Shown here: positions 34,423 to 57,107 of the stretch, in pieces | How positions within the stretch are numbered: the first letter of the stretch is position 1 | Layout: every line of letters starts with the position of its first letter | Assembly: GCA_000002435.2 (NCBI GenBank) | Contig: CM018791.1 | Length of the DNA: 64,000 nt | Source of the DNA: Giardia intestinalis | Taxonomy: Eukaryota | Reading direction: 5' to 3' (one strand) | Translations under genes and position numbers: made by a program | Notes under the pieces: generated by a model | The model's database searches: none | What the model saw: only the letters and a program-made list of their open reading frames with translations | What the model was told of the DNA's origin: nothing

Positions 34423-36204
34423 TTATGCTTTTCTGCGGCCAATGAACCACCAACAGAGAAAACCGGCGAGGCCTCCGACAACGATGATGACGACAACAGA
34501 GACGCCTGCGATGGCGCTAGGGCTGAGGCCACTTCTATTGGCATCAGCTCTGCTGGTACCGCTTCCATTGACATAGCAGGTGACAGATCCTTGACCATTA
34601 GATGGAGGAGCACAGCTTACGCAATTAGGCACACCAACTATTCCGTTGGCACTAGCATCACACTTCACGCACTTATCCCCGGACTTGTAGTATCCTGGGA
34701 GGCACTCCGAACACTGCTGTGGAGAAGCACTTCCCGTACATTTTGAGCAGCCATCCGGACACGCCGGGCAGGAACCAGAATTTTTATCTGCTGTTTGCCC
34801 GTTGGTGCAGCTCGTGCACTTTCCATTGTTAGCACTAGAGCAGAGAGTATTGCCAGGATACACTGTTGACTGATAGCACCCGCCAGACTGCAGAAAGTAT
34901 GAACCTGTACACGCAGTACATACCCCATCACCCGGGGTGCATCCAGTTACTGCTCTTGTCGTTGTCGACACACAGACGCCGTCCACTGGAACGTATCCTG
35001 CCTTGCACCTGCTGCAGTACTTAGAGCCACCAACGATGGCCGTGCATTGTCCATCTGCACAGTTCTCTGCGTACTGTCCTGTGCACTCCTGGATGCATGT
35101 GCCAGCAGACGCACCGGATGCAGCGCTCAACACAAACCCAGAGTAGCATGCGGTGCAAGTAGTGCTGGTCGTATCTGTACAGCTGGCGCACGACGAGTGG
35201 CAAGGGGTACAGACGCTTTGCTTGTCGTATGTTCCGACGGGGCAGCTGTCCAGGCACGCGTCCTTGAGGGGGCTGAGCTTTTTATCAGAACCGCACTTAG
35301 AGCACTTGATGAGAACGGTGGCGGATCCGCTTACGGAACTGAGTAGCGAGCACTCGGCACAGTTCTCTATACCACCGTTAGCATTCTCACCACAAGGAAG
35401 ACACTTCTTCTTATTCTCTGCATTGTCGTTGGGGAAGTGCGTTCCGGTGCATGCGTTTCTGAGAATACAGCTAGTGGGATCGCCACCTTTCAGGTACTTG
35501 CCTTCTTGGCACTCAGTGCATGTGGCAGGGGTGTCTGCTTTTCCCGATGCAGTGCACTTCAGGCACCCATCAACGCCCTTCCATGTACTGCCAGATGTAT
35601 CTCCGCACAATATGCATTTGCTCTCTTTATCACCAGCTGCTCCGAGGAAGTACCCGTCCTCACAGGCCGTGCACACTGCAGGCTTAGGGGCAGGATCACT
35701 TGCTATTTTGGGAGAGTCACATAGTGTACAGTGAGCGATTCCCATATATGATCTACCAGAAAGAACTTGTACGCTGATAGTGTCGTTACATGCTATCACA
35801 GACTGATCTGATCTAATTGCCTGTGGTGGAACAAAGTACCCCGGAGCCGCCTCTGTGCACGCTCCCTCCGCAGCCTTGATACAAAGTTTCTGTCCAGGTT
35901 CGTTATCTACACTATAACATCCACCCTTATAGAGGAAATAAGCATCTTCACACCGTTCACATACCTTGTCTTCTGCTAGTCCAGTTCCATCTTCCTTTTT
36001 GCAGCCAGAAGTGGTAACGGCGCTGTCACCTTTTTGCTTGCATACACCGTTAATTGGGACGTTCCCAGCATATTTACATTCTGTACAAACTTCAGTGCCG
36101 CCAACCATTTCACACTTACTCTCTGCGCAATCTCGTGTGTTGGCCTCAACAGTACAGGTTGCCGCGAGAACGCTCGCCATAACACAGAAGGCTGTCAATA
36201 GCAT
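34423..36204 (-). CDS. Variant-specific surface protein (VSP) with a non-canonical GRRKA C-terminal tail.
   Basis: 593 aa. Signal peptide MLLTAFCVMASVLAATC. There are dozens of CXXC motifs and GGCY motifs. The C-terminal TM helix is ...GGLAGFLCWWFIGRRKA. The VSP poly(A) motif lies 17 nt past the stop. Confidence 0.85.
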   Translation of the reverse strand: MLLTAFCVMASVLAATCTVEANTRDCAESKCEMVGGTEVCTECKYAGNVPINGVCKQKGDSAVTTSGCKKEDGTGLAEDKVCERCEDAYFLYKGGCYSVDNEPGQKLCIKAAEGACTEAAPGYFVPPQAIRSDQSVIACNDTISVQVLSGRSYMGIAHCTLCDSPKIASDPAPKPAVCTACEDGYFLGAAGDKESKCILCGDTSGSTWKGVDGCLKCTASGKADTPATCTECQEGKYLKGGDPTSCILRNACTGTHFPNDNAENKKKCLPCGENANGGIENCAECSLLSSVSGSATVLIKCSKCGSDKKLSPLKDACLDSCPVGTYDKQSVCTPCHSSCASCTDTTSTTCTACYSGFVLSAASGASAGTCIQECTGQYAENCADGQCTAIVGGSKYCSRCKAGYVPVDGVCVSTTTRAVTGCTPGDGVCTACTGSYFLQSGGCYQSTVYPGNTLCSSANNGKCTSCTNGQTADKNSGSCPACPDGCSKCTGSASPQQCSECLPGYYKSGDKCVKCDASANGIVGVPNCVSCAPPSNGQGSVTCYVNGSGTSRADANRSGLSPSAIAGVSVVVIIVVGGLAGFLCWWFIGRRKA

Positions 36205-40440: not shown

Positions 40441-40740
40441 TTGCCCGTGGGGCCTCTGAGCGCACCTGCAGGCGGGCCCAGTGATACATTGACAGCAATG
40501 TACAGGAGTGCACCCCGAACAATCACTCCACAAGAGAGGTGCAATCTGAGTCTGGTCATCACTCATCCTGTTCCTATCGAAGCCAGGGGGAATCGTGCCA
40601 TCAGCTGGCCTCCGGTGGGTGTGCTCTTATCTCGTTCTTCTCTAGTACAACTGGTCAAGGAGAGTGAGAGTGACTGTCTCTCACTGCTTGTGGCAACGCA
40701 CCAGCCTGATGAAAGAGCAGTGGCACACGAACTCCGGCTA

Positions 40741-42537
40741 ATGTTGGTAGGATTTCTCCTAGTTTGTGCAACCGTGCTGGCAAAGGACAGCGGGAAGACC
40801 GCGTGCGAGCAGAAGACGGGCGTCTGCGACGGCTCCTTGACCACCGCGGGCTGCGCGACCTGCACCCCGGCGGGCTCCAGCCAGACGTGCCTCACCTGCA
40901 CCACTTCGTCGCATAAGATCAGGCCGGACGAGAAGGGCTGCATCTCCGAGTGCCCCGCGGACGTGAGCACAGACGTCGATGGATTCTGCAAGTGCAAGAG
41001 CGGGTACACGCCGTCGACGAACGGGCAGACGTGCGAGCAGAAGACGGGCGTCTGCGACGGCTCCTTGACCACCGCGGGCTGCGCGACCTGCACCCCGGCG
41101 GGCTCCAGCCAGACGTGCCTCACCTGCACCACTTCGTCGCATAAGATCAGGCCGGACGAGAAGGGCTGCATCTCCGAGTGCCCCGCGGACGTGAGCACAG
41201 ACGTCGATGGATTCTGCAAGTGCAAGAGCGGGTACACGCCGTCGACGAACGGGCAGACGTGCGAGCAGAAGACGGGCGTCTGCGACGGCTCCTTGACCAC
41301 CGCGGGCTGCGCGACCTGCACCCCGGCGGGCTCCAGCCAGACGTGCCTCACCTGCACCACTTCGTCGCATAAGATCAGGCCGGACGAGAAGGGCTGCATC
41401 TCCGAGTGCCCCGCGGACGTGAGCACAGACGTCGATGGATTCTGCAAGTGCAAGAGCGGGTACACGCCGTCGACGAACGGGCAGACGTGCGAGCAGAAGA
41501 CGGGCGTCTGCGACGGCTCCTTGACCACCGCGGGCTGCGCGACCTGCACCCCGGCGGGCTCCAGCCAGACGTGCCTCACCTGCACCACTTCGTCGCATAA
41601 GATCAGGCCGGACGAGAAGGGCTGCATCTCCGAGTGCCCCGCGGACGTGAGCACAGACGTCGATGGATTCTGCAAGTGCAAGAGCGGGTACACGCCGTCG
41701 ACGAACGGGCAGACGTGCGAGCAGAAGACGGGCGTCTGCGACGGCTCCTTGACCACCGCGGGCTGCGCGACCTGCACCCCGGCGGGCTCCAGCCAGACGT
41801 GCCTCACCTGCACCACTTCGTCGCATAAGATCAGGCCGGACGAGAAGGGCTGCATCTCCGAGTGCCCCGCGGACGTGAGCACAGACGTCGATGGATTCTG
41901 CAAGTGCAAGAGCGGGTACACGCCGTCGACGAACGGGCAGACGTGCGAGCAGAAGACGGGCGTCTGCGACGGCTCCTTGACCACCGCGGGCTGCGCGACC
42001 TGCACCCCGGCGGGCTCCAGCCAGACGTGCCTCACCTGCACCACTTCGTCGCATAAGATCAGGCCGGACGAGAAGGGCTGCATCTCCGAGTGCCCCGCGG
42101 ACGTGAGCACAGACGTCGATGGATTCTGCAAGTGCAAGAGCGGGTACACGCCGTCGACGAACGGGCAGACGTGCGAGCAGAAGACGGGCGTCTGCGACGG
42201 CTCCTTGACCACCGCGGGCTGCGCGACCTGCACCCCGGCGGGCTCCAGCCAGACGTGCCTCACCTGCACCACTTCGTCGCATAAGATCAGGCCGGACGAG
42301 AAGGGCTGCATCTCCGAGTGCCCCGCGGACGTGAGCACAGACGTCGATGGATTCTGCAAGTGCAAGAGCGGGTACACGCCGTCGACGAACGGGCAGACGT
42401 GCGAGCCTTCTAATACCAATAAGAGCGGCGGCCTTTCTACCGGTGCCATTGCAGGCATCGCTGTGGCCGCTATCATCGTTGTTGGTGGCCTCGTCGGCTT
42501 CCTCTGCTGGTGGTTCTTGTGTAGGGGGAAGGCATAG
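40741..42537 (+). CDS. Variant-specific surface protein (VSP) with seven identical 76-aa tandem repeats and a canonical CRGKA tail.
   Basis: The start was chosen at the signal peptide MLVGFLLVCATVLA; the ORF track's upstream extension starts at a TTG. The repeat unit CEQKTGVCDGSLTTAGCATCTPAGSSQTCLTCTTSSHKIRPDEKGCISECPADVSTDVDGFCKCKSGYTPSTNGQT occurs 7 times. The C-terminus is ...GGLVGFLCWWFLCRGKA. Confidence 0.85.
   Translation: MLVGFLLVCATVLAKDSGKTACEQKTGVCDGSLTTAGCATCTPAGSSQTCLTCTTSSHKIRPDEKGCISECPADVSTDVDGFCKCKSGYTPSTNGQTCEQKTGVCDGSLTTAGCATCTPAGSSQTCLTCTTSSHKIRPDEKGCISECPADVSTDVDGFCKCKSGYTPSTNGQTCEQKTGVCDGSLTTAGCATCTPAGSSQTCLTCTTSSHKIRPDEKGCISECPADVSTDVDGFCKCKSGYTPSTNGQTCEQKTGVCDGSLTTAGCATCTPAGSSQTCLTCTTSSHKIRPDEKGCISECPADVSTDVDGFCKCKSGYTPSTNGQTCEQKTGVCDGSLTTAGCATCTPAGSSQTCLTCTTSSHKIRPDEKGCISECPADVSTDVDGFCKCKSGYTPSTNGQTCEQKTGVCDGSLTTAGCATCTPAGSSQTCLTCTTSSHKIRPDEKGCISECPADVSTDVDGFCKCKSGYTPSTNGQTCEQKTGVCDGSLTTAGCATCTPAGSSQTCLTCTTSSHKIRPDEKGCISECPADVSTDVDGFCKCKSGYTPSTNGQTCEPSNTNKSGGLSTGAIAGIAVAAIIVVGGLVGFLCWWFLCRGKA
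40804..42399 (+). repeat. Tandem repeat of 7.0 copies of 228 bp. The copies are apparently 100% identical and in-frame within the VSP gene.
   Basis: Copy boundaries are 40804, 41032, 41260, 41488, 41716, 41944 and 42172. The six-frame track shows identical 64-aa spurious ORFs at exactly 228-bp spacing (40950, 41178, ... 42090). Confidence 0.9.
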
Positions 42538-42551
42538 ATACTTAGCTGTGT

Positions 42552-42566
42552 ACTTAGATAGTAAAC
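42552..42566 (+). terminator. Extended VSP-type polyadenylation signal ACTTAGATAGTAAAC.
   Basis: Exact match to ACTYAGRTAGTRAAY, 15 nt after the VSP2 stop codon (TAG at 42535-42537). Confidence 0.65.
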
Positions 42567-43097
42567 GCGTTACTGTGCATAACTTGTATAGATGTGTTGC
42601 TGGACTTGTCTGCAAACGCGGTTCAGAGGCGAAGGTTGGTCGTTGATGATACATAATGAGAGACTTCTCTCCATCAATGCATCCAGAGCCCTGCGCGGTC
42701 CTCGGTCGGCGTGCTCTGTCTGGGGCGCTCCGTGTCGACCTCCAGGATCCGGCCTGCTCAGGGCCATGCGAGTCGCGAGCGTGCTCTCCTTGACCTGCCA
42801 TCAACAACTCGCACTGGGCGCCTTGCTCGGGCAGTAGCCAAGGTCACTCCAAAGGGTGGCTCCGGATTGCAGTTAAAATCAGCGGCGGCTGTTGACTCCA
42901 CTCCCTCTCCCAGCCACCGCAGAGGGCGCCCTAGGAGTTGCTAGTAACAGTGCAGTTAATGGCTTTGCATGGCCGATGGGCACTGGTGGCGTCCCCGTGC
43001 TCAGCAGGCACCCTCAGTGTTATCTACTCTCTCAGGGGATGTCCCTACCTTACTGTGAGAGAGATCCGGCTCGACGGTCTGGATCAGCACGGTGTGG

Positions 43098-55476: not shown

Positions 55477-55553
55477 CTGAATTCTAAAACGAAAATGTAA
55501 TTTACTAGAAAGAAAACTCTTTGACCAAAAATAGTTTGAACAAAACCACAAAC

Positions 55554-57107
55554 CTAACTATCTGCAAATATGGCGGAATTAAAAGATACATCAGAGAGTT
55601 CCGAATCTGGCCTGCTGGCAAGGCGGCTCCGTATGCCTCGCTTTGACCTGCGCTTATCATCTAAGTCAGAGTTGTACGTACTAAAGCTGGATGTTAATTC
55701 AGAAATAGTTTGCACGGTGGGAACAGCGATCTTTTGTTGTTCTATAGGCCTTTTAGTTAATCCGAAAAGCAAACACTCCTCATCATTGTCGGAGATGTGC
55801 ACTGAGAGGGTCTCCTCATTAAGAACACCGCGATTTGCAGTTGAGCCCATATCTGGAATAGCGTCAGACTCTACATACGCAGCCGCTGCGTCTTTAGATG
55901 CCTGCGAAGACCCTGGAGGGACTACTGGGGCGTTAGAGATCTGAAGGCATGAGGCATACTCTGCTATCTTACTTGAGGTAGACTGAGCTACTATAGGTAC
56001 GTCTGCAGGATTGGATAAGTAGCTTCCAAGAGGACAGTGTGCATGTGAGACAGACTGGGGAACCTGCATTGATAGTGCATTGAGGTGTGTAGGATAGCTG
56101 GCAGAAGAACTTGTCAGACTATGGACAGGGCACTCTAAGTAATTGCTCATATCTGGTAAGCAGCAGCACTTGACGTTAGTAGGGGAGACTGACGGAAGAG
56201 TGGTTGCCTGATTGGAACTGGTTGCTGAAAAGATATTCGTGGGCATAGATGCACTGGTAGACCAAGTGTTAGAGCTAAACGTTGTTAACTGTAGATTTTC
56301 ATATGGAGAGGGGCCCATGTGGAAATTAGGTGATTGATTGAAGTGTGGATGCATTGAGAGTGGCTGTTGAGACTGTAAATACCGAGGGCTAGTAGACGGG
56401 TGGAACATAGACGGCTTGGTGTCTAGGAAGGAGGATATCGGAACTGGGTTCGGCCTTGGTGCCAGTTGATCGATAGATCCCCCCAATGCTCCTGTGGAAG
56501 GAGGGAATGTTTGGCTAAGCATGTGGTGAATAGGAAGATTGGGCATGTTTGTGCTCAATTGTGCCCCTCCCATAATGGGGACAGTATTGTCTTTATCCTT
56601 CTGGCGTATAAACCGACCACCTGCCCGTGGTCTATCACAGGCAATTTTTCTTCGCAGTTCATAGAGGCAGCGCTTGCCAAGAGATCGCAGGCCTCGGCCT
56701 CGCAAATACTTGGTCAGGAGGGACGCCCTTTCTGTCAGAGAAAACTTCCCAATGTGCGAAAGTTGACGAGGGTGCTTAATGTAGTATGTTGTCAATAAGT
56801 CTATGGGCTTAATATAGGTAGAAAGTGTATCTACTTCTGTTGCAAGGTGTTTAAACCCAAATGACTCCACAATGGGGGTGGAGCTAAGCTCTGCTATCTT
56901 AGCATCGAAGCTAGCCTTAGCATCGATAAGAGTCTGGATCTTGTCTTGCTGCTGAAGCTGTCCGACTTTATTACACAGCACAGACTGAACTTTAACAAGG
57001 TGAACTAGTAAATCATCCGGGTTCATTTGATTGAGCGCTGCGATGTCATCAATAATTTCCCCTCCTATCGCGGCGGCGGTTAGAGCCGAGGCAGGTACAT
57101 CGTCCAT
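55554..57107 (-). CDS. Protein with a CCT / NF-YA-like basic motif (putative DNA-binding or regulatory protein).
   Basis: Residues ~139-183 (ERASLLTKYLRGRGLRSLGKRCLYELRRKIACDRPRAGGRFIRQK) align almost gaplessly to the CCT consensus [42 protein letters not shown]. The rest is S/T/P/Q-rich. The first ATG is at 57107; the track ORF starts at a TTG. The promoter region is AT-rich. Confidence 0.55.
   Translation of the reverse strand: MDDVPASALTAAAIGGEIIDDIAALNQMNPDDLLVHLVKVQSVLCNKVGQLQQQDKIQTLIDAKASFDAKIAELSSTPIVESFGFKHLATEVDTLSTYIKPIDLLTTYYIKHPRQLSHIGKFSLTERASLLTKYLRGRGLRSLGKRCLYELRRKIACDRPRAGGRFIRQKDKDNTVPIMGGAQLSTNMPNLPIHHMLSQTFPPSTGALGGSIDQLAPRPNPVPISSFLDTKPSMFHPSTSPRYLQSQQPLSMHPHFNQSPNFHMGPSPYENLQLTTFSSNTWSTSASMPTNIFSATSSNQATTLPSVSPTNVKCCCLPDMSNYLECPVHSLTSSSASYPTHLNALSMQVPQSVSHAHCPLGSYLSNPADVPIVAQSTSSKIAEYASCLQISNAPVVPPGSSQASKDAAAAYVESDAIPDMGSTANRGVLNEETLSVHISDNDEECLLFGLTKRPIEQQKIAVPTVQTISELTSSFSTYNSDLDDKRRSKRGIRSRLASRPDSELSDVSFNSAIFADS

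Follow-up and report, generated by a model that had tools for sequence, protein, structure and literature searches.

Whether Giardia intestinalis, an organism in which few sequence-specific transcription factors are recognised, encodes a DNA-associated regulator of a type best known from plants is the question raised by a single gene on contig CM018791.1 (assembly GCA_000002435.2). In the 64,000-nucleotide stretch of this contig that was analysed (the window), a minus-strand open reading frame (ORF) at 55554–57107 encodes 517 amino acids plus a stop codon, counted from the first ATG, and contains an arginine-rich segment that resembles the CCT domain of Arabidopsis CONSTANS (CO), rice Hd1 and TOC1. 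The ORF list and an exact-sequence cluster look-up identify this coding sequence as GL50803_15255 of G. intestinalis WB, deposited as KAE8302892.1 / XP_037901821.1 under the description "hypothetical protein". Its UniProt entry (A0A644F3B0) carries the automatic name "CCT domain-containing protein", as do those of its orthologues, DHA2_150351 in assemblage A2, GLP15_1280 in assemblage E and GL50581_2132 in assemblage B; the G. muris orthologue is GMRT_12595. A first-pass annotation, made from the letters of the DNA alone, had described a canonical CCT motif with a likeness to NF-YA in a diplomonad protein, and the diplomonad origin agrees with the source organism, Giardia intestinalis.

The 45-residue string on which that description was based, ERASLLTKYLRGRGLRSLGKRCLYELRRKIACDRPRAGGRFIRQK, is present on the minus strand as residues 126–170 of the 517-residue protein (56598–56732). 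The first-pass annotation, which named no strand, had placed it one codon away, at 56601–56735, an interval in the correct frame that translates to TERASLL...GRFIRQ. The Pfam CCT core RASLLTKYLRGRGLRSLGKRCLYELRRKIACDRPRAGGRFIRQ (residues 127–169; 56601–56729, minus strand) aligns with positions 1–43 of the 44 positions of PF06203 without interruption, so that the single gap to the CCT consensus reported earlier is not there. The whole protein matches PF06203 with 28.6 bits (E=1.4e-6; gathering cutoff 28.4), the motif alone with 33.8 bits (E=3.4e-8) and the G. muris orthologue with 36.9 bits. Because the margin for the whole protein is thin, independent controls were run. None of ten composition-preserving shuffles of the motif matched any Pfam family at E<=10. 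A hidden Markov model (HMM) built solely from 83 non-Giardia CCT segments gave 38.0 bits for the Giardia segment and 47.4 bits for that of G. muris, as against a best score of 13.9 bits among 5000 shuffles (mean 0, standard deviation 1.5). The motif call of the first-pass annotation therefore stood: the HMM match is significant, and basic composition does not reproduce it.

Searches in the opposite direction led to the same family. Among all Protein Data Bank (PDB) sequences, phmmer found only the CCT chains of Hd1 (7c9o_A, E=0.005; 51 residues aligned without gaps) and CO (7cvo and 7cvq; 48 residues, likewise gapless). A profile of Giardia sequences only, covering residues 1–180 and searched exhaustively against 1.84 billion representative proteins, recovered the G. 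muris protein (E=3e-31) and 64 non-Giardia proteins, with all matches confined to the CCT region; PF06203 was present (37–85 bits) in each of the ten that were tested. A further profile, built from the extended region of Giardia and of protist relatives, recovered CO and Hd1 from the PDB at E~1e-15 in gapless alignments of up to 54 positions, and all 120 of the database matches listed for it carry PF06203. The signature residues of the family, R127, Y149, R152, A156, R159-P-R161 and G164-R-F166 (R1, Y23, R26, A30, R33-P-R35 and G38-R-F40 in CCT numbering), are all kept in Giardia. By these sequence comparisons, GL50803_15255 carries a true, divergent CCT domain. It is of the CCT-only (CMF-like) type: PF06203 is the sole Pfam family found in the 517-residue protein at E<=10 and in the G. 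muris orthologue at E<=0.01, and the Pfam scan of GL50803_15255 found none of the companion domains of the COL (B-box), PRR (receiver) and ZIM (TIFY, GATA) proteins.

The module is longer than its Pfam definition. Ahead of the core stands H-I-G-K-F-S-L-T-E, in agreement with the [IV]-G-x-[YFL]-[ST]-x-x-E-R extension of protist and plant CCT-only proteins; in Giardia the extension, I119-G-K-F-S-L-T-E-R127, begins upstream of the Pfam boundary. The extended module comprises residues 118–170 (56598–56756, minus strand), and 62 non-redundant relatives could be aligned to Giardia residues 115–171 without gaps. In the resulting set of 63 sequences, the columns of the extension are occupied by G (53/63), [YLF] (57/63), [TS] (57/63), E (52/63) and R (63/63), and those of R127, Y149, R152, A156, R159, R161, G164 and F166 are invariant. 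The column of Ala156, alanine in all 63, corresponds to Ala562 of TOC1, the residue affected in toc1-1; both toc1-1 and toc1-3 are A562V substitutions at this conserved alanine of the TOC1 CCT helix (PMC2292679).

An AlphaFold2 (AF2) model of residues 106–180, computed from an alignment of 49 sequences, has a mean predicted local distance difference test score (pLDDT) of 80, rising to 86–95 in the core, and contains two helices. Predicted helix α1, LTERASLLTKYLRGRGL, spans residues 124–140 (56688–56738, minus strand; pLDDT 83–95), and predicted helix α2, YELRRKIACD, spans residues 149–158 (56634–56663, minus strand) and contains the invariant Ala156. They are followed by the C-terminal signature RPRAGGRF (residues 159–166; 56610–56633, minus strand), which is invariant across the Giardia orthologues. 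In the model, H118-I119 and F122-S123 are β-bridged to R161-A162 and R165-F166, which suggests that, in the unbound domain, the extension may lie against the RPRAGGRF end. Among 350,542 PDB chains compared with the model by Foldseek, the best match was the Hd1 CCT chain 7c9o_A. The full-length AF2 model, based on only five sequences, has a pLDDT of 31.7 and is unusable.

Compared with known CCT proteins, the Giardia domain aligns without gaps over 43 residues with those of CO and Hd1 (7cvo, 7cvq, 7c9o) and of TOC1 and the PRR proteins, with about 33% identity to CO by our own count from the phmmer alignment. It shares with CO, Hd1 and TOC1 all invariant positions, the toc1-1 alanine and the R-P-R-x-x-G-R-F sequence, and the AF2 model predicts two helices and a C-terminal loop for it. 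Unlike those proteins, the Giardia protein has no B-box, receiver, TIFY or GATA domain; its CCT domain is located within the N-terminal third, not at the C-terminal end, and near-invariant basic and aromatic positions of helix 1 are replaced (G137 and L143). In the CCT-only (CMF-type) proteins of Spirodela, Cochlearia, Ectocarpus, Pelagophyceae and the MMETSP data, CCT is likewise the sole recognisable domain, and these proteins have the upstream extension and often an RPRxGGRF ending in common with Giardia. In many of these relatives, however, the CCT domain is found in the C-terminal part, and neither the Giardia N-terminal region nor the C-terminal QTISELTSSFS...SDVS..S.IF block has a counterpart outside the genus. 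A further likeness concerns the Jas motif (CCT_2) of JAZ/TIFY proteins: ERASLLTKYLRGR in Giardia resembles RRASLHRFLEKRK, and Jas peptides in the PDB align with the N-terminal portion of the CCT profile, up to about its middle (E=0.06–0.22, not significant), although Jas has neither the second helix nor the RPRxxGRF loop. The first half of the Giardia CCT domain (residues 126–141, ERASLLTKYLRGRGLR) resembles the JAZ Jas degron (RRASLHRFLEKRKDR). This resemblance fits the known relationship between CCT and CCT_2 and may point to a general role of helix 1 in binding partners.

Two other origins of the motif have to be considered. Eleven arginines and four lysines in 45 residues, together with the borderline Pfam score of the whole protein, would be in keeping with a fortuitous resemblance of a basic stretch to CCT, but the shuffled sequences came nowhere near the real score, the motif does not vary among assemblages and keeps 69% identity in G. 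muris, and reciprocal profile searches brought back CCT proteins only; chance is thereby refuted as far as such comparisons go and is hardly credible. The other candidate is NF-YA, the CCAAT-reading subunit of the canonical NF-Y trimer, of which GL50803_15255 might be a highly divergent orthologue. CCT and NF-YA do have a homologous region in common (PMC11132886; PMC5157953). The Giardia motif ends in GGRF, like the GxGGRF of NF-YA, and Aspergillus HapB was weakly matched by the CCT profile (E=0.7), over the last 22 positions only and with one extra residue in HapB. Against orthology, CBFB_NFYA (PF02045) does not match GL50803_15255 at E<=10, phmmer found no NF-YA chain in the PDB, and CO and Hd1 outscore HapB by about 15 orders of magnitude in the profile search. 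The DNA-reading A2 motif of NF-YA is HESRHxHA, with R-x3-G-R-F spacing. The corresponding Giardia segment, LYELRRKIACDRPRAGGRF, has no histidine, carries YELRRKIA in place of the A2 histidines and shows the R-x2-G-R-F spacing of the CCT type, in an alignment to CCT proteins that is ungapped over 43–54 residues. NF-YA orthology was rejected on these grounds and is very improbable. The NF-YA likeness pointed out by the first-pass annotation thus survives as a trace of the known distant relationship between the two families, and apparently only as that, while membership of the NF-YA family does not. What the CCT module of Giardia plausibly has in common with NF-YA/HAP2/HapB (PF02045; 4g91) is a functional logic, in which a basic module with a terminal GRF sits on a histone-fold dimer.

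With a probability that we put at about 0.55, the CCT protein GL50803_15255 acts as a nuclear DNA-associated regulator, by analogy with its plant relatives. The CCT domain of CO joins the NF-YB/NF-YC histone-fold dimer to form a trimer that recognises TGTG elements (PMC11132886); the role of the α1 helix in CO and NF-YA has been described (PMC11132886; PMC5157953), and the CCT domain of TOC1 supplies a nuclear-trafficking signal (PMC2292679). If the analogy with plant CO and Hd1 holds, the Giardia protein would be nuclear, with the basic residues of the CCT domain and a second basic cluster, KRRSKRGIRSR, serving as nuclear localisation signals. Helix α1 would dock on a pair of histone-fold proteins that is H2A/H2B-like and of the NF-YB/NF-YC type, helix α2 and the RPRAGGRF loop would contact DNA, and the complex would work as a sequence-specific transcription regulator. 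The helices of the N-terminal region could provide oligomerisation, the S/T/P/Q-rich centre a disordered effector region, and the conserved acidic and hydrophobic tail, SDVSFNSAIFADS, a docking or activation motif. The histone-fold-dependent step of this scheme is more tentative than the nuclear and DNA-associated role itself. More speculative still, and on balance unlikely, is that Giardia, without a canonical NF-YA, uses this CCT protein instead as the sequence-specific third subunit of an NF-YB/NF-YC-like or H2A/H2B-like complex. If that were true, "NF-CCT" regulators would date to early eukaryotes rather than being a plant invention, and GL50803_15255 would count among the few regulators that act on transcription with sequence specificity in a parasite poor in transcription factors. 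The NF-Y complex of Entamoeba, which modulates encystation (PMC6581852), offers a precedent, as a histone-fold-based regulator of development in a gut protist that is likewise poor in transcription factors. Entamoeba, however, has canonical NF-YA, NF-YB and NF-YC, while the Giardia protein is a CCT protein and not NF-YA, and nothing connects it with encystation.

Several observations weigh against this reading. The PF06203 score of the whole protein exceeds the cutoff by just 0.2 bits, and the domain deviates at four near-invariant positions, K to G137 (serine in G. muris), W/F to L143, C to L151 and D to C157, which account for the modest score and could alter partner or DNA binding. Literature searches returned no localisation, expression, DNA-binding or partner data for GL50803_15255. 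Finally, no NF-YB/NF-YC-type histone-fold gene was found by Pfam among the scanned ORFs of at least 150 amino acids in the window, a scan that did not extend to some ORFs of that size or to any smaller one.

Two of these deviations bear on the possibility that the module is mainly a nuclear-import signal, a Jas-like interaction helix or both, with no DNA binding, the protein being a cofactor or scaffold. Nuclear trafficking was for years the sole defined activity of the TOC1 CCT domain (PMC2292679), the partner-binding helices of JAZ Jas are similar to the N-terminal half of the CCT profile, and it is a near-invariant lysine (consensus position 23) and an aromatic residue (position 29) that Giardia has lost. 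Yet the C-terminal half of the domain (Y149, R152, A156, R-P-R and G-R-F) shows no change within Giardia and is conserved more strongly than any other part of the protein; in CO and Hd1 this half lies on DNA, and such constraint would be unnecessary for a nuclear localisation signal alone. We consider an import or interaction module without DNA contact possible but rather unlikely. Binding of RNA, in place of DNA or besides it, would suit the highly basic character of the module, and a preprint in which the CCT domain is mentioned 60 times reports that TOC1 binds RNA (10.1101/2020.05.06.071340). However, nothing specific to Giardia points to RNA, and the best-characterised CCT complexes are DNA-bound (7c9o, 7cvo, 7cvq), which makes a role in RNA binding improbable.

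A nuclear DNA-associated regulator remains the preferred interpretation of GL50803_15255, and the pattern of conservation along the protein sets the CCT module apart from its surroundings. The CCT stretch hardly varies among the five orthologues of the G. intestinalis group, whose overall identity is 67–100%; the Pfam core is 90–97% identical among assemblages and 69% identical to that of G. muris. Judged by these identities, CCT is the most conserved module between the Giardia species and is evidently under strong purifying selection. Identity in the N-terminal helical region (residues 28–113; 56769–57026, minus strand) amounts to 86–97% among assemblages and to 26% with G. muris; in the exhaustive search, positions 1–110 of the Giardia-only profile were matched by Giardia proteins only. 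The helices of this region are seen solely in the low-confidence full-length AF2 model; the region may mediate oligomerisation or partner binding. The central S/T/P/Q-rich region (residues 171–464; 55716–56597, minus strand), with 14% identity to G. muris and 104 gapped positions, has no structure in the full-length AF2 model. It contains a cysteine cluster, KCCCLPDMSNYLECPVH (residues 313–329; 56121–56171, minus strand), that is present in all five G. intestinalis-group orthologues and missing in G. muris, and that might serve in metal binding or lipidation as a motif particular to this lineage; its pattern is K-C-C-C-x-x-D-M-x-N-x-L-E-C-P-x-H.

In the C-terminal conserved block (residues 465–517; 55557–55715, minus strand), the assemblages are 96–100% identical to one another, and identity to G. 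muris is 47%. The block includes a Q-T-I-S-E-L-T-S-S-x-S sequence that is unchanged between G. intestinalis and G. muris and the nuclear-localisation-like cluster KRRSKRGIRSR (55623–55655, minus strand), and it ends in the acidic and hydrophobic tail. In a word-indexed search of 5.8 billion proteins, a profile of this block found a Giardia fragment and no relative outside the genus. The architecture as a whole, with a Giardia-specific N-terminal region, the CCT domain in the first third and a genus-specific C-terminal block, is specific to the genus. The first-pass annotation had taken everything outside the motif for low-complexity sequence; this holds for the centre (residues 171–464), and does not hold for residues 28–113 and 465–517, which are strongly conserved within the genus.

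The CCT domain is common in non-plant protists and is not restricted to plants in current databases. The extended subtype was found in Ectocarpus, a pelagophyte, the MMETSP protist transcriptomes and many further eukaryotic sequences, as well as in plant CCT-only proteins of Spirodela, Cochlearia, Genlisea and Hibiscus. CCT occurs in both G. intestinalis and G. muris, and the extended subtype is also found in stramenopiles and other protists; together, these findings speak for an old module with a broad distribution among eukaryotes. The earlier suggestion that the find is noteworthy because CCT domains are best known from plants was therefore overstated; with the domain already annotated in UniProt for GL50803_15255 and its orthologues, the novelty is modest. 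The practical gain is limited as well, given that the domain was auto-annotated before and the sequence does not reveal the role of the protein. Among the papers that could be searched, none deals with GL50803_15255 or with CCT domains, NF-Y/CCAAT or histone folds in Giardia. Each credible DNA-binding module in this organism may nonetheless belong to a regulator of encystation, antigenic variation or metabolism, and GL50803_15255 is a concrete candidate for a histone-fold-dependent regulator.

Some of the non-Giardia proteins deserve a separate mention. One of the most Giardia-like among them (P0037, L001:4001–4531; motif RCIY, ending GGKF) is encoded on a contig of run SRR30207577 that is very compact and eukaryote-like and may stem from a further protist with a compact genome. 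The genes on either side touch or overlap that of P0037, and a gene for a thermolysin-type Peptidase_M4 is close by. Two other matches of the Giardia-only profile (P0034 and P0041) have two tandem CCT domains per polypeptide and are GC-rich, alanine-rich eukaryotic proteins. To our knowledge, such a tandem arrangement is not familiar from the plant CCT classes.

The start codon of GL50803_15255 is ambiguous, because the first ATG gives 517 residues while the NCBI model for WB and the G. muris protein begin at the equivalent of Met28; the interval concerned is 57024–57107 on the minus strand, and the motif is unaffected. The NCBI model has 490 residues and starts at Met28 (ATG at 57024–57026), and the first residue of GMRT_12595 is a methionine that aligns with Met28. 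Residues 1–27 are 29–77% identical among assemblages, as against 86–97% for residues 28–113. Further database models of the gene have 531, 541 or 579 residues. At the other end, the start codon of the gene for GTP-dependent PEPCK lies 77 bp downstream of the GL50803_15255 stop codon on the same strand. The Giardia polyadenylation consensus is AGTRAAY, and the spacer (55477–55553) contains the candidate signal AGTAAAT (55500–55506, minus strand) some 50 nucleotides past the stop, which probably serves as the poly(A) signal of GL50803_15255. With this signal in a spacer of just 77 bp, the terminator of one gene and the promoter of the next appear to be tightly packed.

The remaining gene content of the window is typical of Giardia and includes variant-specific surface protein (VSP) genes, NEK-like kinase/ankyrin genes, and genes for IFT57, coatomer beta and GTP-PEPCK. 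A canonical VSP gene is located at 34423–36204 on the minus strand (PF03302, 295.8 bits), about 4 kb from a VSP/EGF-like cysteine-rich surface protein gene on the plus strand (40441–42537; PF03302, 78.6 bits). The latter is part of a region, 40441–42807, in which three ORFs of more than 630 amino acids overlap on both strands. The two ORFs antisense to the VSP/EGF-like gene have no meaningful Pfam support, with one sub-threshold match to Fer4_5 between them (E=1.8e-4, 21.8 bits; cutoff 22), and are taken to be by-products of the composition of that gene.

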